Positions 5,145-14,390 of a stretch of 16,595 bases of DNA are shown here, piece by piece (positions within the stretch are counted from its first letter, which is position 1; every line of letters begins with the position of its first letter). Both the position numbers and the translations under genes were made by a program. Origin of the DNA: a virus; the UHGV virus genome UHGV-0309045; one strand, 5' to 3'. The notes under the pieces were generated by a model that worked only from the letters and a program-made list of their open reading frames with translations, was not told the DNA's origin and did no database searches.

Positions 5145-5159
5145 TTACCGTTGAGGTAA
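5145..5159. promoter_or_regulatory. Operator site TTACC GTTGA GGTAA (promoter-proximal site of the pL-like promoter)
   Basis: Perfect match to the TTACC-N5-GGTAA palindrome. An extra TTACC half-site at 5132-5136 forms a 7-bp inverted repeat TTACCTC/GAGGTAA around it. Confidence 0.6.
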
Positions 5160-5278: not shown

Positions 5279-5863
5279 TTATTGTTTGCTTTTTTCGTTC
5301 TGGTTGATGACAAATTCAATGTAACTTTCGATCTTTGCTTTCTCGGTTTCGGGTAACAATGCGTAGCGCGAGCGGTCATAGTTGATAGTCGCAGGGTCGT
5401 GCGGGTGAATCAGTAGTTCATATCCGTGACGCCCGAATGCGGATGCAACATTCTCCAGGGTGGAAATGGAAACGCTGACCTCATTGTTTAACAGGCGACT
5501 GATTGTCACCTGGGCGACGCCGGATGCGCGGTGAAGTTTTCCCTGCGTTGAAAGGTCGCGGCTTTCGCTCATCCAGCGTTCCAGGTTGTGAGCCGCCAGC
5601 TGACCAATGTCGCTTGGGCCGACAGGCTGAAAACCTTCCTGAGAAAGCGAGCGATCGATATCAAGCCAGTTACGGGGTTTATTGGCGGCAGCTTCAATTT
5701 TTCGCGCAACCTGGTCGCCGATAACCTTCTTGCCAAGAGCCCAGCGGTTTACCAGATTTGCCTGAGTTCCAAGTTTTTCTGCCATCCGCGTCTGAACACC
5801 ATTGAATTCACGGTCGATCAAGTCGTTGAGATTTTGCCTGCGGACGTCCTGGATACTTTTCAT
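5279..5863 (-). CDS. CI-like prophage repressor with two HTH segments and no recognisable LexA/S24 peptidase domain
   Basis: Divergent from the Cro-like gene across an operator-rich intergenic region. HTH-like segments TRMAEKLGTQANLVNRW and ASGVAQVTISRLL. No Ala-Gly/Ser-Lys autocleavage motifs seen by eye. Confidence 0.75.
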   Translation of the reverse strand: MKSIQDVRRQNLNDLIDREFNGVQTRMAEKLGTQANLVNRWALGKKVIGDQVARKIEAAANKPRNWLDIDRSLSQEGFQPVGPSDIGQLAAHNLERWMSESRDLSTQGKLHRASGVAQVTISRLLNNEVSVSISTLENVASAFGRHGYELLIHPHDPATINYDRSRYALLPETEKAKIESYIEFVINQNEKSKQ

Positions 5864-6614: not shown

Positions 6615-7406
6615 ATGAGCAGACATGCAACAGATTGGGCCTGGGAGACAGATCCAGGTAGCTCGTCATTAAAGCTCATACTGCTCTCGATGGCTGACAG
6701 AGCCGATGAATATAACCTCTGCTACCCCAGCATAGAACGCCTCGTTAAAGACACTTGCCTGAATAAAAAAACCGTGCAGGCCGGGCTTATATCGCTCATG
6801 AAAATGGGGCTTATTTCAGATACCGGAGAGAGAAAGGGTGCGACGAAAAGAGTGCGGGTTTTCTCTCTTAATATAACCAAAAACGGGAACATTAAAGGCA
6901 ACCGGGAAGGGGGTAATGAACCCGAAAACGGTAATGTTACCGAAAACGGGAATATACCCAAAAACGGGATGTTGAATGATCCCAAAAACGGGATCCAGAA
7001 CCAGTCATATAACCAGTCATTTAACCAAGAGAGGGAGAGCAGGACAAAAAGCGGGGATTCTGTGCCTCATGACCCCGGCGCAAACAACGCCGTGATGAAT
7101 AACTTTGTTCCTCCTGGTGGGCCAGGGCAATTAGGCAAATTTGTCATGCATGAACAATGGCAGCCATCAGATGACTTTCTTCGGAAAAGCTCATTGCAGG
7201 GGATCTACCTGGACAGTCTGCCAACGGCACAGGAGCTTGCAGAGTTCAGAATTTACTGGATGGCTGAGGGTAAGGCATACCATCAGGCACAGTGGGAGCA
7301 GAAGCTGGCAAGGCGGCTGCAGATTAGCAGACAGAAGCAATCAACATTACCTGATAACAACGTTCCGCACTGGAACAGCCCTGAAGCGTGGGAGGATTTC
7401 TTGTGA
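6615..7406 (+). CDS. Replication initiator: N-terminal winged-HTH domain and C-terminal DnaT-like domain (lambda O functional analogue)
   Basis: C-terminal block GKFVMHEQWQPSDDFLRK...ELAEFRIYWMAEGKAYHQAQWEQKLARRLQI resembles E. coli DnaT as recalled. The central NG-rich linker is encoded by the iterons. GGAG RBS upstream of ATG 6615. Confidence 0.8.
   Translation: MSRHATDWAWETDPGSSSLKLILLSMADRADEYNLCYPSIERLVKDTCLNKKTVQAGLISLMKMGLISDTGERKGATKRVRVFSLNITKNGNIKGNREGGNEPENGNVTENGNIPKNGMLNDPKNGIQNQSYNQSFNQERESRTKSGDSVPHDPGANNAVMNNFVPPGGPGQLGKFVMHEQWQPSDDFLRKSSLQGIYLDSLPTAQELAEFRIYWMAEGKAYHQAQWEQKLARRLQISRQKQSTLPDNNVPHWNSPEAWEDFL
6877..6993. repeat. Iteron array (putative phage ori) inside the initiator gene
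   Basis: Five copies of CC(A/G)AAAACGG(G/t)A at 6877, 6922, 6940, 6958 and 6982 (spacings 45, 18, 18, 24 bp), followed by a tandem AACCAGTCAT repeat at 6999-7008 and 7011-7020. Confidence 0.7.
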
Positions 7407-8193: not shown

Positions 8194-8213
8194 GCGCGAT
8201 AGCGCATTTTTTT
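8194..8213 (+). terminator. Weak terminator-like element after the P-like gene
   Basis: 4-bp GC stem GCGC-GATA-GCGC followed by ATTTTTTT. The stem is short, so confidence is low. Confidence 0.3.
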
Positions 8214-8225
8214 ACGCCTTGATAG

Positions 8226-8302
8226 TTACCTTCTGGGTAACAAAGTATTCTAAACTCTATTGATTTCGTGTCTTATGTGGTTTTTAATTACCTCAGGGGT
8301 AA
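8226..8302 (+). promoter_or_regulatory. Operator-promoter-operator module driving the accessory operon
   Basis: Operators TTACCTTCTGGGTAA (8226-8240) and TTACCTCAGGGGTAA (8288-8302), both perfect palindrome matches. Between them -35 TTGATT 8260-8265, 17-bp spacer, -10 TTTAAT 8283-8288. The downstream operator overlaps the RBS of the 8306 gene. Confidence 0.6.
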
Positions 8303-8305
8303 ATT

Positions 8306-8650
8306 ATGAGAAAACAGATACAGGCTCTTGGTCGACTCAAAACAGGCCAGATGAACAAAACAGAATCTGCGTATTGCCAGCACCTTGAGTTGCGTAAACG
8401 TGCAGGAGAAATCGTCTGGTATCGATTTGAGGGTATCAAGCTGCGGTTAGCTGACAACACGTTCTATACGCCAGATTTTGCTGTGATGCTCGCCACCGGC
8501 GAGATGGAACTGCACGAAGTGAAAGGTTTCTGGACCGACGACGCCAGGGTGAAAACCAAAGTCGCCGCAGATCAGTATCCGTTCCGAATCATCGGGGTAA
8601 CGGTTAAACCAAAGAAAGCAGGTGGTGGCTGGAACATCGAAGAGTTCTGA
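8306..8650 (+). CDS. DUF1064-like phage protein (putative PD-(D/E)xK-type nuclease fold)
   Basis: Pattern ...AYCQHLELRKRAGEIVWYRFEGIKLRL...YTPDFAVM...ELHEVKGFWTDDARVKTKVAADQYP fits the DUF1064 spacing as I recall it. RBS AGGGG 6 nt upstream. Confidence 0.55.
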   Translation: MRKQIQALGRLKTGQMNKTESAYCQHLELRKRAGEIVWYRFEGIKLRLADNTFYTPDFAVMLATGEMELHEVKGFWTDDARVKTKVAADQYPFRIIGVTVKPKKAGGGWNIEEF

Positions 8651-8711
8651 ATCGACGATCTTTTTAGTTATCAATGTAATCAATAAGTTATGTGGATAAG
8701 CGAGGGTAAAG

Positions 8712-9245
8712 ATGGAAAGTAATATCAAAGGGTTAGTTGCCGCCGGGCATGAGATGGCTTCGGAACTGAAAGCAGAATGTGGTGCCGTTGATATGCGCAG
8801 TGTGGCAAAGCTGATCAGCGATTTGGCAACGCAACTGGAAGTGCAACTGGTGCGTGCTAATGCGATGGCCGAAGACCAGCAGAAAGCGATTGAGTCAATT
8901 AAGCAGGCTGATTCGGCTGTTAAGTTGGCACACGAGAAGTTTTCGGCGCTGGCGGCGGAGAATGCGGCAATGCATGAAGCTATTGAAGCCGTTCGGAGTG
9001 TTGCGGATAACTCCAGTGGAATTGCCGGATGGCATTTGAATGGCGATATCGCTACATGGGAAGAGATTCTTCCTGAAATTAACGATATCGAAACCCCAGC
9101 CACCGATGCTTTCCTGGCTGAAGTACGGGCGCAGGGGGTAGAGATGTTCTCAGAAAAATTCGGAGGTGGCACTCCGCTATCCAATATGGTCAAAGAGGTT
9201 GCGGCTGATTTTGCGGCGAAGCTTCGCAAAGGAGGCAACCAGTGA
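8712..9245 (+). CDS. Hypothetical helical protein (177 aa)
   Basis: GAGGG RBS 5 nt upstream of ATG 8712; stop overlaps the next start (GTGA). No recognisable motif. Confidence 0.7.
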   Translation: MESNIKGLVAAGHEMASELKAECGAVDMRSVAKLISDLATQLEVQLVRANAMAEDQQKAIESIKQADSAVKLAHEKFSALAAENAAMHEAIEAVRSVADNSSGIAGWHLNGDIATWEEILPEINDIETPATDAFLAEVRAQGVEMFSEKFGGGTPLSNMVKEVAADFAAKLRKGGNQ

Positions 9246-9865
9246 GCAAGATTGACTATCAGGCACTGCGTGAAGCGGCAGAACGCGCAATTCCGGCAAT
9301 GGAACGCCTGTTAACGTTGCCAGCCGATGATGACTTGTTAAGCGAAAAGGAGCTTAAAGATAGCGATGTTGATATTGATGCGATTAACAACTTCAAACTG
9401 CTGACCGGCCCGGAAACGGTGCTGGCACTGCTGGATGAACGGGAAAGAAACCAGCAATACATAAAACGCCGTGACCAGGAGAACGAGGATATTGCGCTTA
9501 CGGTTGGGAAGCTGCGAGTTGAGCTGGAAGCCGCAGAGAAGCGCAACGCTGAATTACAAAGCGAGAATGCATACATCCGCAACCGGTTCAAAGAACTGGA
9601 CCTGTTAATCGGGAAAAACATTCTGGTCATGCAGGCTGCGATTATCGAATGGCAGGCAACTGGCGACGCTAAGAGCGGACTGGCATGGATTTATAACACA
9701 CTGTTTGGCCCTGGCGAATTGCCGGACGAATCTGAGAAAGATGCTCAGGCCTACTTTAATCGCAAATATGCACCGATTGACGAAAAGCTTATGGAGCTTC
9801 ACAAGTGGTTTTGGGAACAAAGTGAATCCGAGCGCGCCGCTGGCATTCGCATCAAAGGAGAGTGA
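9242..9865 (+). CDS. Hypothetical coiled-coil protein (207 aa), possibly ead/Ea22-like
   Basis: GTG 9242 with GGAGG RBS 6 nt upstream. N-terminus MSKIDYQALREAAERA and a central coiled-coil segment. Family name is a tentative recollection. Confidence 0.6.
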   Translation: MSKIDYQALREAAERAIPAMERLLTLPADDDLLSEKELKDSDVDIDAINNFKLLTGPETVLALLDERERNQQYIKRRDQENEDIALTVGKLRVELEAAEKRNAELQSENAYIRNRFKELDLLIGKNILVMQAAIIEWQATGDAKSGLAWIYNTLFGPGELPDESEKDAQAYFNRKYAPIDEKLMELHKWFWEQSESERAAGIRIKGE

Positions 9866-9866
9866 T

Positions 9867-10154
9867 ATGGCAACTTTGCAGGAATTAATCGACCTGACGC
9901 CAGAACAGGAAAAAGCGTGGAATCGCCTTGTGAAGGCTGTAAAGGATTTCAGGGCAGCCGGAGGAAAGTTTTATAGCGTCCTGGACACGCTGAGCGCATA
10001 CAACGGCGAGCACGTTGCCAGCATTGATAACGATAAGGGCTACCACACTGCAAGCGTCTATATGCCTAGCATTGATGCGCCAGGGCTAACCAGTTGGGCT
10101 GATGATTGGCACGGCATCACGCTGAAAGATGGCGTTGAAGTGGATGAGGACTAA
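9867..10154 (+). CDS. Hypothetical protein (95 aa)
   Basis: ATG 9867 one nucleotide after the previous stop, with AAAGGAGAG RBS. The ORF track extends further upstream in frame, but that part overlaps the preceding gene. Confidence 0.65.
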   Translation: MATLQELIDLTPEQEKAWNRLVKAVKDFRAAGGKFYSVLDTLSAYNGEHVASIDNDKGYHTASVYMPSIDAPGLTSWADDWHGITLKDGVEVDED

Positions 10155-10157
10155 CAC

Positions 10158-10517
10158 ATGACCACTATTACCAATAAGAAACAGTATCCCAGCGAGCAAT
10201 ATCTTAATGAGCTGATCACCAACATAGAGTTTGCTGCAAGGGCACCAGTTGAAGTCGTGAGAGCGATGGCAGCAGAGCTACAGAAGCGGCGCGAAGCTGA
10301 TAGTGCAGAACCTGTAAGCCAGGCTTACAAGTTGAACGCGCTGGATGGCAACTCTCCGGTAACTCCGGATGGTTGGGTTATGGTTCCTAAACAGGTAACG
10401 CCGGAAATCAGCAACGCGATAAACGTTGTGGGTCAACGCTGTACATGCGGAAATTGCTCTCAGCGGTTGTGGGATTTATTACTCGACGCCACACAGCAAG
10501 GAGTTAACCGTGGCTAA
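10158..10517 (+). CDS. Hypothetical protein (119 aa)
   Basis: ATG 10158, 3 nt after the previous stop. C-terminal CTCGNC motif. Confidence 0.65.
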   Translation: MTTITNKKQYPSEQYLNELITNIEFAARAPVEVVRAMAAELQKRREADSAEPVSQAYKLNALDGNSPVTPDGWVMVPKQVTPEISNAINVVGQRCTCGNCSQRLWDLLLDATQQGVNRG

Positions 10518-10791
10518 CCTGCAACTTGCCGTTAAAGGTGAATACTTCGATGCCATGATTCGCGGAGAGAAAACGGAAGAGTATCGCCTGTGTAATGACT
10601 ACTGGAATAAGCGAATTATGTTCCGGGAGTATGACCGCCTGATTATCACAAAGGGATATCCGAAGCGCGACGACTCCAGCCGCAGAATTAACGTCCAGTA
10701 TGACGGATATGAAATCAAGACAATCACACATCCCCACTTCGGTGATAAACCGGTAAAGGTGTTCGCGATAAAGGTAAATATTGATGGCTAA
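10510..10791 (+). CDS. ASCH/DUF3850-like small protein (94 aa)
   Basis: GTG 10510 with AAGGAG 6 nt upstream, overlapping the previous gene by 8 nt. LQLAVKGEYFDAMIRGEKTEEYR resembles the ASCH-like DUF3850 N-terminus as recalled. Confidence 0.5.
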   Translation: MANLQLAVKGEYFDAMIRGEKTEEYRLCNDYWNKRIMFREYDRLIITKGYPKRDDSSRRINVQYDGYEIKTITHPHFGDKPVKVFAIKVNIDG

Positions 10792-11122
10792 ATCAGCAGC
10801 AGAGCGCAAAGCCGCTCAGAGAGCCAGACAAGCTGCATCTGGTGTGTGTAAGCTGGAAATTGTGCTTGATGCTCAGGAAATTGAAATGCTGGCGCGGAAC
10901 TGCGCCGCCCGGCGCCCTAGTCGCGATCCCTATGAAATGGCCGAGTACATCGCGCTGCTGATCCGCCAGGATGATGCACGTGTGCGCGGGCGTATAAAAT
11001 CGATCAGCAGAAAACTTTGCGGTAAGTGCGGCGAGAGAGTTCCCGTTAATTCATGCCCGTGTAATGGTGACTCGCAATGCTGGGTGACTAAAGGCTGGCA
11101 TGAAACGAAATTAATAGTGTGA
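10784..11122 (+). CDS. Basic Cys-rich zinc-ribbon protein (113 aa); candidate regulator, last gene before the terminase operon
   Basis: ATG 10784 overlaps the previous stop. Basic N-terminus MAKSAAERKAAQRARQAA and C-terminal CGKCGERVPVNSCPCNGDSQC cluster. Stop TGA 11120-11122 lies inside the 12-bp palindrome. Confidence 0.6.
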   Translation: MAKSAAERKAAQRARQAASGVCKLEIVLDAQEIEMLARNCAARRPSRDPYEMAEYIALLIRQDDARVRGRIKSISRKLCGKCGERVPVNSCPCNGDSQCWVTKGWHETKLIV

Positions 11123-11130
11123 CATGTCAC
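11119..11130. repeat. Perfect 12-bp palindrome GTGACATGTCAC (14-bp TGTGACATGTCACG shared with 13383-13396)
   Basis: Read directly from the sequence. Overlaps the stop of the 10784 gene and precedes the terminator at 11172. Confidence 0.85.
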
Positions 11131-11171
11131 GAGTAGATTATGCATGATGAATTTGATGGGTTTTGAATACT

Positions 11172-11198
11172 GCCGCCAACTATGGCGGCTTTATTTTG
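11172..11198 (+). terminator. Rho-independent terminator ending the accessory operon
   Basis: Hairpin GCCGCC-AACTAT-GGCGGC followed by TTTATTTTG. Confidence 0.75.
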
Positions 11199-11201
11199 CA
11201 T

Positions 11202-11233
11202 GGTACTATTACCACAACGGTAACTATTACCAC
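11202..11233 (+). repeat. Tandem direct repeat GGTA(A)CTATTACCAC x2 with 18-bp period, just upstream of the terminase small subunit
   Basis: ACTATTACCAC at 11205-11215 and 11223-11233. Each unit carries the operator half-sites in everted order (GGTAA-N3-TTACC). No sigma70 consensus promoter is evident, so this may be an activator-dependent late promoter. Confidence 0.5.
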
Positions 11234-11240
11234 GGTGGTT

Positions 11241-11837
11241 ATGATGCCTGCTGAACCTAAAACCTATAAACGCAAATCAACGCAATTTAAGCCACTAACA
11301 GCAATGCAGGAGGCTTATTGCCAGTCATACATCAAAACGCCTGAAAACCAGACTCAGGCAGCGATTAACGCAGGATTCTCCCCAAATACAGCGGCAGTTA
11401 AAGCCAGTGTCATGATGCGCGATGAACGCATTCAAAAACGGATTGCCGAGCTGATGGAGGAGCGCAACAAACGAATGCGCGTCAGTGCTGATTACGTTCT
11501 CATGCGCCTGGTGGAGATCGACCAGATGGACGTGATCGACATCCTCAACGACGATGGGAGCCTTAAGCCAATCCGCGAGTGGCCGAAAATCTGGCGCACT
11601 ACGCTTAGCGGCTTTGATCTGTCATCGACCATCATGAACATGAACGAGGATTCGATAGAGACAATCCTCAAAAAAATTAAATGGCCTGACAAGGTGAAGA
11701 ACCTCGAGCTTATCGGTAAGCACGTCGACGTCAACGCGTTCAAAGAGCGCCTGGATGTTAATGTGAATGTGACAATTGCTGATCGCATAGCGGCAGCCAG
11801 GAAGCGACTCAAAGAACGTCAGGATGGTAATCAGTGA
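11241..11837 (+). CDS. Terminase small subunit (Terminase_2-like)
   Basis: LTAMQEAYCQSYIKTPENQTQAAINAGFSPNTAAVKASVMM matches the small-terminase HTH signature. Start placed at ATG 11241 because the ORF-track start at 11163 spans the upstream terminator. Confidence 0.8.
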   Translation: MMPAEPKTYKRKSTQFKPLTAMQEAYCQSYIKTPENQTQAAINAGFSPNTAAVKASVMMRDERIQKRIAELMEERNKRMRVSADYVLMRLVEIDQMDVIDILNDDGSLKPIREWPKIWRTTLSGFDLSSTIMNMNEDSIETILKKIKWPDKVKNLELIGKHVDVNAFKERLDVNVNVTIADRIAAARKRLKERQDGNQ

Positions 11838-13383: not shown

Positions 13384-13395
13384 GTGACATGTCAC
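13384..13395. repeat. Second copy of the palindrome GTGACATGTCAC
   Basis: Identical 14-mer TGTGACATGTCACG at 13383-13396, lying between the stop of the 118-aa gene at 13400 and the terminator hairpin. Confidence 0.85.
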
Positions 13396-13399
13396 GGTG

Positions 13400-13756
13400 T
13401 TATTGCTCGCTTAACTTCTGCTTCAGCAAGTAACCTTCGAGCATCCAGATTTTGTTTACAGCATTCTGCCGGGCAATCTTCCGACCAATTTCTGCATCAA
13501 AATTTTCCGGACTTGCACAGGCACTCTCTCCGGTGACGGTGAAGCCATTCTTCAGTACCAATACGCAGAAAGTCAGGAGGTCTGTAGATTTATGCGCTGT
13601 CCATGAATCGCCAACGCCCATATTGGCAGCACGAATGCCGTCATAAGCAGTAAAGAAATGCTCTTCAAGAATGATGCTTTCGATATATTGAGGCGTAACT
13701 CGCGGAGCGGTTTTGCCTTTCTCAACGATTTCTTTTTCGATTTGCTGGTCGTTCAT
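13400..13756 (-). CDS. Hypothetical protein (118 aa), reverse-oriented cargo gene inside the late region
   Basis: ATG 13756-13754 with AAGGTGAG RBS. Opposite strand to the flanking terminase and portal genes. No family recognised. Confidence 0.7.
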   Translation of the reverse strand: MNDQQIEKEIVEKGKTAPRVTPQYIESIILEEHFFTAYDGIRAANMGVGDSWTAHKSTDLLTFCVLVLKNGFTVTGESACASPENFDAEIGRKIARQNAVNKIWMLEGYLLKQKLSEQ

Positions 13757-13954: not shown

Positions 13955-14031
13955 TGGTGTGGCATGCAGGATTCTAACCTGCGACCAACCGCTTAGAAGG
14001 CGGTTGCTCTGTCCAACTGAGCTAATGCCAC
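13955..14031 (-). tRNA. tRNA-Arg (anticodon UCU), argU-like, with encoded CCA
   Basis: Minus-strand sequence GTGGCATTAGCTCAGTTGGACAGAGCAACCGCCTTCTAAGCGGTTGGTCGCAGGTTAGAATCCTGCATGCCACACCA folds by hand into a cloverleaf: 7-bp acceptor stem, 4-bp D stem, 5-bp anticodon stem with loop CTTCTAA, 5-bp T stem, discriminator A, CCA. Close to E. coli argU as recalled. T-loop reads TTAGAAT rather than TTCGAAT. Confidence 0.9.
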
Positions 14032-14353: not shown

Positions 14354-14390
14354 TTACCCGAAGGGTAATAATTCGCGCGTTAAATGTCAA
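14354..14390 (-). promoter_or_regulatory. Operator TTACC CGAAG GGTAA (14354-14368) with an adjacent minus-strand -35 TTGACA (14390-14385); candidate repressor-controlled leftward promoter for the tRNA unit
   Basis: Perfect palindrome match and a perfect -35 hexamer on the minus strand 16 bp away. No convincing -10, so direction and function are inferred. Confidence 0.4.

Follow-up and report, generated by a model that had tools for sequence, protein, structure and literature searches.

A rightward early operon in a Uetakevirus prophage that ends in a predicted ribbon-helix-helix protein and a conserved stop-codon palindrome

Introduction

Phages of the epsilon15/phiV10 type occur commonly as prophages in E. 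coli, Salmonella and Klebsiella, and we have found no description of how their late genes are controlled. In Escherichia phage phiV10 and Salmonella phage epsilon15, the slot that separates the terminase gene terS from the DnaT-like and P replication genes is occupied by an operon on the same strand, p45–p55 in phiV10 and gp43–gp49 in epsilon15. It is preceded by a pair of repressor-type operators 62 bp apart, has a resolvase gene first and an Eae-like gene second, and closes with p55 or gp49 followed by the same terminator and palindrome. We have analysed the equivalent operon, genes g1 to g7 at positions 8306–11122, in the UHGV virus genome UHGV-0309045, a stretch of 16,595 nt referred to here as the window. 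PGAP annotation and the phage maps place it in the same slot and all of these features are shared; the difference is in the middle genes. phiV10 has 11 genes in the operon and epsilon15 has 7, whereas the set of genes in the prophage of the window is unique, with a 933W L0066-like gene and a truncated DUF551 gene among its members.

An earlier note on this DNA, made by reading the sequence against a lambdoid plan, had singled out the seven genes as the first place to look for an undescribed defence, anti-defence or regulatory system. We consider it quite likely that they are instead a standard rightward early (delayed-early) Uetakevirus operon, composed of a resolvase, swappable accessory genes and a regulator, g7, that acts at palindromes. 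The operon is of an ordinary type that has already been sequenced and annotated; its possible importance lies at its end, in g7 and the palindrome on the g7 stop codon.

Results

The prophage and its reference frame

The window is a phiV10/epsilon15-like temperate podovirus prophage (genus Uetakevirus) adjoining guaA and not a lambdoid phage. Positions 8200–11200 match a prophage of E. coli FDAARGOS_1257 with 100 % identity, and the gene order of this prophage at guaA matches that of phiV10 and epsilon15. The seven + strand genes between 8306 and 11122 coincide with those that PGAP annotates in the identical FDAARGOS_1257 stretch and form the compact operon described in the earlier note, with overlapping or close-set junctions at all places except the 61-nt gap between g1 and g2 (Table 1).

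That note had also remarked on the lack of a Q-like antiterminator and of lysis genes, which lambdoid phages would carry at this point. The observation is correct, as none of the seven proteins has such a match in Pfam, NCBIfam or PHROG, but the expectation behind it does not apply to a prophage of the epsilon15/phiV10 type, whose lysis cassette normally lies behind the tailspike. The holin, endolysin and spanin genes of phiV10 and epsilon15 come after the tailspike gene, ~25 kb into the late region, and the lysis cassette of the window's prophage is found at NZ_CP069480.1 4020498–4022295, at the far right end by yfgI and ~27 kb downstream of the operon. There are thus no lysis genes between replication and packaging because the Uetakevirus family places them after the tailspike, and the apparent anomaly of the absent Q and lysis genes is the product of a wrong (lambdoid) frame of reference.

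The conserved last gene

Besides the resolvase slot, g7 is the one gene of the operon that the other Uetakeviruses compared retain. Its product is 92 % identical to phiV10 p55 and 78 % identical to epsilon15 gp49, with a range of 75–92 % across the Uetakeviruses compared. The family, PHROG 536, includes gp46 of phage N15 and comprises 148 clusters at 50 % identity in a search of 1.84 billion representatives; it is small yet widespread, and it comes with a sharply defined candidate operator that has just two or three sites per genome (see below).

An AlphaFold2 model of g7, calculated from a 54-member alignment, has a predicted local distance difference test score (pLDDT) of 93. The strand-helix-helix core of the predicted model superimposes on known ribbon-helix-helix (RHH) proteins; a comparison with the RHH families of Pfam gave no match. 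In the C-terminal part C79 and C82 are invariant and C99 is nearly so, and a further cysteine is present. Foldseek found no match for this C-terminal Cys4 domain in PDB or BFVD, and the BFVD fold search with g7 returned just a fragment of its own family. The g7 protein is predicted to be an RHH dimer with a C-terminal Cys4 domain, which probably binds zinc.

This is the Cys-rich basic protein that had been listed as unrecognised. It is the gene retained by the other Uetakeviruses compared and a predicted DNA-binding regulator at the place where Q would sit, so that the regulatory part of the suggestion "defence, anti-defence or regulatory" gains support from it and the defence part does not. 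We have considered g7 as a Q protein and rejected this, as there is no match to a Q family by sequence and the fold is RHH-like rather than Q-like.

A palindrome at the g7 stop codon and at other operon ends

The g7 stop codon lies within the perfect palindrome GTGACATGTCAC, and two further exact copies are found in the prophage (Table 1). In the complete Uetakevirus genomes analysed, the three copies, exact or nearly so, occupy the same three places, all at operon ends and 1–41 nt from intrinsic terminators. Copy 1 lies 22–41 nt ahead of the terminator preceding terS. Copy 2, by the terL terminator, has equivalents at 2142 in epsilon15 and 2262 in phiV10. Copy 3 is located 1–2 nt before the terminator of the structural operon and overlaps the stop codon in epsilon15 and in the window's prophage. 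The general form GTGAC-N2-GTCAC occurs three times each in epsilon15, the window's prophage, N15 and Vibrio K308, where ~0.04 copies would be expected per genome, and one of the K308 copies is 19 nt before terS. phiV10 has two exact copies and one copy with a single mismatch that spans the ends of the record. The palindrome is annotated in neither the phiV10 nor the epsilon15 GenBank record, and a full-text literature search for GTGACATGTCAC returned no paper.

The association with g7 extends well beyond these phages. In related IMG/VR loci that extend past the gene, GTGACATGTCAC is found near the g7 stop in 78 out of 78, at −3 to +7 in 77 of them and at +194 in the remaining one. Thirteen of these loci have no terS downstream and still keep the palindrome, with a spacing from the gene that matches the lambdoid phage Chlobot, in which the gene is part of a leftward operon before xis and int. 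GTGAC-N2-GTCAC is also present at or beside the stop codon of homologues with 35–62 % identity in N15, a Yersinia P2-like phage, Pantoea phage AH07 and two Vibrio lineages; the stop-codon palindrome is CGTGACTGGTCACG in N15 gp46 and TGTGACGCGTCACA in the Yersinia phage. The link is looser in the most distant clade sampled, where 9 loci reach beyond the gene and 5 of them have the palindrome no more than ~35 nt from the stop. In all, the palindrome accompanies g7 homologues in podoviruses, siphoviruses and myoviruses whose immunity and late regions are unrelated.

Across lineages in which g7 is 35–97 % identical, the arms of the palindrome are unchanged and the central two bases vary. This pattern is better matched by a dimer with sequence specificity than by a simple hairpin, and it bears on the idea that the palindromes are RNA hairpins for 3′ ends, or bind a host factor or another phage protein, the position at the end of g7 then being simply a module boundary. 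The palindromes do stand at transcript ends by terminators, a small hairpin is predicted at 11118–11131 by RNA folding, and copies 2 and 3 are distant from g7. However, it is the arm sequence itself and not just its pairing that is constant, as for a dimeric sequence-specific binder, and the element travels with g7 homologues across unrelated phages, which neither a host factor nor a different phage protein would predict. We regard such an origin of the palindromes as unlikely.

Two observations on the surroundings of the gene may be recorded here. The N15 genome (L099) has CGTGACTGGTCACG at 28550, 33237 and 39269; its sites are on the gp46 stop codon, between gene 33 and a terminator upstream of the antirepressor operon, and inside repA. 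In the Uetakevirus Klebsiella phage Kp4865-1 (L007 ~5300–5450), g7 and the palindrome are followed not by terS but by a UmuD-like gene (motif GFPSPAADYVEQ), which is itself preceded by the LexA-box-like sequence TACTGTTTAAATATACAGTA; UmuD-like genes are also found near the g7 homologues of Chlobot and AH07.

How g7 might act

We propose the following sequence of events. Transcription would start at the promoter bracketed by two repressor-type operators and end at the terminator before terS, and the immunity repressor would hold the operon off in the lysogen; the operon is expected to be silent there because its promoter is bracketed by operators of the prophage repressor type. On induction it would supply the junction resolvase for replication and packaging, the variable accessory proteins and, last, g7. 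The g7 protein would then bind GTGAC-N2-GTCAC at its own stop codon and at the two copies that end the terminase and structural operons, and in its bound form would govern whether RNA polymerase crosses the three operon junctions. In the version that we prefer, g7 promotes passage into terS and onward along the 27-kb rightward late region, past the terminators within it, and would fill the role of Q without being its homologue. We prefer a positive role because an early operon would be expected to close with a positive regulator and because copy 1 is followed by a promoter-like element and then by the terminator. At copy 1 this element has the form GTGACA-18-CATGAT, and GTGACA followed after 17 or 18 nt by a −10-like element, a candidate promoter, is found in several members of the group. 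Put more specifically, and as a tentative suggestion, g7 and its palindromes may be an undescribed regulator-operator module of temperate phages and the missing early-to-late switch of the Uetakeviruses, acting not at a promoter but on elongating RNA polymerase at the junctions, either as a DNA-loaded antiterminator (Q/RfaH-like) or as a gate coupled to the terminators.

Several points weigh against a positive late switch. Binding of g7 to the palindrome is itself proposed from co-occurrence and position. A true Q-type protein is encoded alongside the g7 homologue in N15, Chlobot and AH07, and in these phages the homologue precedes xis/int or small genes and not terS; the coexistence with Q means that the family is not a dedicated late-gene switch everywhere. 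A role of the palindromes as late promoters is not supported, as a −10-like hexamer at the proper spacing follows copy 1 only, and simple promoter activation thus fails as an explanation for all sites because copies 2 and 3 have no −10. At copy 2 the order on the + strand is terminator and then palindrome. The late genes might need no extra factor, because all late operons carry repressor-type operators. Finally, a promoter scan listed neither of the two candidate promoters ahead of g1.

The opposite sign of action has to be considered in this light. As a negative factor, g7 would be a roadblock or insulator at the palindromes that stops RNA polymerase at operon ends, reinforces the terminators and, by truncating its own mRNA, regulates itself. 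The operator overlaps the stop codon of the regulator's own gene family-wide, the three Uetakevirus copies adjoin operon-end terminators, one of them between convergent units, and in Chlobot, AH07 and N15 the site directly precedes the next gene, where blocking of read-through would be the simplest effect. The late operons probably have their own promoters, given their own repressor-type operators, and the company of Q, the lack of a −10 at copies 2 and 3 and the order of elements at copy 2 all favour a block. A similar arrangement is that of LacI at O3, an operator that overlaps the end of lacI. There is, however, no obvious benefit in blocking read-through into terS unless a separate late promoter exists, and none that is convincing is seen between 11197 and 11241. 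Negative action of this kind is possible, if on the doubtful side. With the positive version still preferred, we regard an RHH-type regulator with an unusual operator placement as a plausible description of the g7-palindrome module, and its role as late switch as plausible also.

Control elements and layout of the operon

The coordinates of the genes and of the sites discussed are collected in Table 1.

Table 1 Genes, palindromes and control elements of the operon and its surroundings. Positions are those of the window unless a locus is named (L001, prophage of FDAARGOS_1257)
Feature	Position	Strand	Description
g1	8306–8650	+	DUF1064 nuclease; 61-nt gap to g2
g2	8712–9245	+	Eae-like; 4-nt overlap with g3 (GTGA)
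g3	9242–9865	+	Ea22 (Ead/Ea22) family; 1-nt gap to g4
g4	9867–10154	+	Small acidic protein, 933W L0066 family; 3-nt gap to g5
g5	10158–10517	+	Chimeric/truncated DUF551/EaA-type; 8-nt overlap with g6
g6	10510–10791	+	ASCH-like small protein; 8-nt overlap with g7
g7	10784–11122	+	Predicted RHH protein with C-terminal Cys4 domain
Palindrome, copy 1	11119–11130		GTGACATGTCAC, perfect; contains g7 stop TGA (11120–11122); candidate g7 operator
Palindrome, copy 2	13384–13395		GTGACATGTCAC, exact; 4 nt after terL terminator hairpin, before the stop (13400) of the convergent minus-strand gene
Palindrome, copy 3	L001 42842–42853		GTGACATGTCAC, exact; on stop codon of last gene of structural operon
Distal repressor-type operator	8226–8240		TTACCTTCTGGGTAA, perfect TTACC-N5-GGTAA
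Proximal repressor-type operator	8288–8302		TTACCTCAGGGGTAA, perfect TTACC-N5-GGTAA; overlaps −10 element and g1 ribosome-binding site
Candidate sigma-70 promoter	8260–8288	+	TTGATT, 17 nt, TTTAAT; read by eye
Alternative promoter candidate	8223–8228 and 8246–8251		TAGTTA, 17 nt, TATTCT; read by eye
TTACC-N5-GGTAA sites, PL region	5145, 5207
TTACC-N5-GGTAA sites, repressor/cro intergenic	5919, 5967
TTACC-N5-GGTAA site	6304
TTACC-N5-GGTAA sites, before g1	8226, 8288
TTACC-N5-GGTAA sites, before terS	11209, 11227
TTACC-N5-GGTAA site, before portal operon	14354
Two repressor-type operators	11209–11223, 11227–11241		Directly before likely terS start; equivalent epsilon15 site 12–27 annotated "repressor"
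Intrinsic terminator	11172–11189, T-run to 11197	+	GCCGCC-AACTAT-GGCGGC then TTTATTTT; from scan

A repressor-controlled promoter had been placed at 8226–8302, and at the sequence level this is supported by two perfect TTACC-N5-GGTAA palindromes. Allowing one mismatch, the window contains 10 such sites where 0.27 would be expected. Their assignment as operators is a sequence match to features of the epsilon15 GenBank record, which marks ATTACC-N5-GGTAAT at the equivalent places as "repressor" binding sites, and repressor binding in the window is accordingly a prediction. The two sites before g1 are 62 bp apart, the same spacing as in the PL pair at 5145/5207, and in each of the three phages examined the operon's first gene has a 62-bp pair ahead of it, at 35907/35969 in epsilon15 and at 35070/35132 in phiV10. 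Repressor-type sites precede every late operon too. They are spread over all transcription units, including those of terS and portal, and direct repression of the late operons by the immunity repressor is therefore probable.

The terminator that had been read as closing the operon ahead of the terminase genes is borne out by a terminator scan. It is conserved in epsilon15, PAT1 and phiV10, and its hairpin appears in the RNA fold. The annotated terS start, TTG 11163, which is used for phiV10 p01 too, would make the gene span the terminator hairpin and both operators; the true start is more likely ATG 11241 or 11244, matching the terS start of epsilon15.

Outside the operon, the DnaT-like replication gene (6615–7406) is 24 nt shorter than the FDAARGOS_1257 copy (L001 18392–19207), and its product has an asparagine/glycine-rich repeat (NGN...ENGN). 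A 1-nt difference between the window and FDAARGOS_1257 is found at 14358, and the two differences together show that the window derives from a genome that is closely similar to that of FDAARGOS_1257 and yet distinct from it. An insert on the minus strand between terL and the portal operon carries a Gp49-family gene (13400–13756) and a tRNA-Arg(TCT) gene (13955–14031), each with its own terminator; the tRNA-Arg gene was the sole match in a search of Rfam.

The resolvase slot

The first gene, g1, matches Pfam DUF1064 (PF06356) with 31.3 bits against a cut-off of 24.7, and PHROG 190, "Holliday junction resolvase", with an E-value of 7e-43. Its catalytic motif is intact, YTPDF...HEVKGFW aligning to YTPDF...VETKGLW of T7 endonuclease I. 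We conclude from these matches that g1 is a PD-(D/E)XK nuclease and a probable resolvase of Holliday junctions or branched DNA. In the same slot a RuvC-type resolvase is found in epsilon15 (L011 35987–36451), in PAT1 (L006 1661–2125) and in 5 of the 48 IMG/VR loci, each holding both anchors of the region, that we surveyed for gene content. A junction-resolving role for g1 is suggested because RuvC replaces it non-orthologously at a fixed position in sister phages. The g1 nuclease most likely resolves branched intermediates of replication and recombination and would be the positional and functional counterpart of the epsilon15 RuvC and, in the nin regions of lambdoid phages, of RusA or NinG.

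Exchangeable genes between the anchors

The five genes between g1 and g7 vary from phage to phage. Over the 48 loci of the survey, homologues of g2 are present in 46 (30–100 % identity), of g3 in 33, of g6 in 23, of g5 in 15 and of g4 in 1, and the left anchor is separated from g7 by 2.1 to 4.5 kb. Only two of the seven genes had been given families previously; we find that six of the seven fall into named or recognisable phage families, and that g4 alone belongs to just an unnamed PHROG.

The g2 protein matches PHROG 492 with an E-value of 2e-55; its N-terminal region resembles a coiled coil and its C-terminal module is conserved. It is 50 % identical to the gene product at the same position in phiV10, 43 % in PAT1 and 32 % in epsilon15, and the phiV10 and epsilon15 records label the gene there "eae-like". 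The next protein, g3, scores 100 bits with Pfam PF13935 (Ea22) and is 63 % identical to L0069 of phage 933W. It ends in IKGE; the four Ea22 proteins compared in a published study all end in KGE, and a K/R-G-E motif is described there (PMC7093339). Ea22 has been reported to be pro-lysogenic in lambda and in Shiga toxin (Stx) phages, and the exo-xis genes, which are non-essential, expressed early and highly mosaic, to influence the lysis/lysogeny decision.

The g4 protein is 99 % identical to 933W L0066 and belongs to PHROG 2821. Its homologues form 54 clusters, of which the named ones are all enterobacterial; an alignment of 34 relatives was too shallow for a usable AlphaFold2 model (pLDDT 55.8). 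The open reading frame of g5 is intact and encodes 119 residues, of which residues 1–61 alone match PHROG 6847, at positions 1–61 of 168. PGAP marks 10158–10334 of this gene as a DUF551 pseudogene, "incomplete, missing C-terminus", and we take g5 to be a recombinant remnant.

For g6 the match to PHROG 625 has an E-value of 2e-50, and the protein is 96 % identical to both phiV10 p54 and 933W L0064. PGAP labels it "ASCH domain-containing"; the match to Pfam ASCH (PF04266) reaches 14.2 bits, below the cut-off of 21.2, and covers residues 6–28 alone. The frame is open upstream to TTG 10426, which would give the 121-residue form annotated for 933W L0064 and an overlap of 92 nt with g5, whilst the short form, from GTG 10510, is favoured by PGAP and by the PHROG profile. 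In 933W, both L0066 and L0064 are located between exo and xis.

The possibility that all seven genes, or the subset g2–g6, make up an undescribed defence, anti-defence or host-takeover unit was assessed against these data. No biochemical function is established for five of the seven proteins, g4 is small and acidic as anti-defence proteins often are, and the published influence of exo-xis genes on the lysis/lysogeny decision could be read in the same sense. PADLOC, a defence-system database, gave an isolated match of the C-terminal part of g3 to its "DpdH" model (E-value 8e-37) and a weak match of residues 57–148 of g3 to LmuB, which may reflect a central coiled coil. However, for the seven proteins it returned no further Dpd component, no other family and no complete defence system. 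We have rejected DpdH as an identity for g3: in a search of 5.8 billion proteins the region proved to be generic, a C-terminal module common to hundreds of prophage proteins of the Ea22-like kind, and the name "DpdH" was absent among the matches listed. We therefore judge the PADLOC model to be over-broad and g3 not to be a defence gene.

The occurrence data speak in the same direction. The presence of g2–g6 varies from locus to locus, and a joint system is not supported for this reason; the low counts for g4, g5 and g6 are far from co-inheritance, and g5 is a gene remnant. Cassettes of the g2–g6 type are shared with Stx and P22-like phages, and in the Stx exo-xis region the same cassettes occur singly and in other orders. 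The middle genes are thus individually exchangeable, and the region reads as a conserved frame filled with such cassettes and not as a co-inherited system. We consider a defence or takeover unit very unlikely.

Discussion

If the proposal for g7 is right, this would be a design of transcription control that works at gene ends and terminators. The remainder of the operon has its nearest likeness in well-known regions of other phages. The ea/exo-xis cassettes of Stx and P22-like phages, which are poorly understood, are the same genes as those in the middle of the operon: the exo-xis region of lambda and Stx phages and the ea region of P22 hold counterparts of g2 (Eae-like), g3 (Ea22), g5 (EaA/DUF551-type) and of g4 and g6 (L0066/L0064), and in both settings such genes are non-essential, expressed early and highly mosaic. 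The lambdoid genes belong to the leftward PL operon between exo and xis and depend on N antitermination, whereas those of the window are in a rightward operon after the replication genes and are under what appears to be direct repressor control.

In its position, after replication and before the late genes, and in containing a junction resolvase (g1 in place of NinG or RusA), the operon resembles the nin-Q region of lambda. The resemblance extends to the Q-PR′-tR′ arrangement, as directly after the regulator gene at the end of the operon come a DNA element, a promoter-like sequence and a terminator. In contrast to Q, for which it might substitute, g7 has no sequence or fold similarity to that protein, and antitermination in the window's phage is a proposal. 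The late genes of lambda begin with lysis, whilst those of the window begin with terS and their operons have their own repressor-type operators.

As a predicted protein, g7 is closest to RHH regulators such as Arc, Mnt, CopG, MetJ, the ParD/TacA antitoxins, AmrZ and TraM, with which it would share a short palindrome as its target. It differs from them in an extra basic N-terminal helix and the C-terminal Cys4 domain, and its proposed operator marks the 3′ end of the gene instead of lying at the promoter. For this placement the best parallels are the "stoperators" of mycobacteriophage L5 and LacI O3, repressor sites at gene ends or stop codons that act on elongating RNA polymerase. In L5, ~30 asymmetric sites are bound by the immunity repressor. 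The proteins are unrelated to g7, and the window's phage has two or three symmetric sites whose proposed binder is not the immunity repressor.

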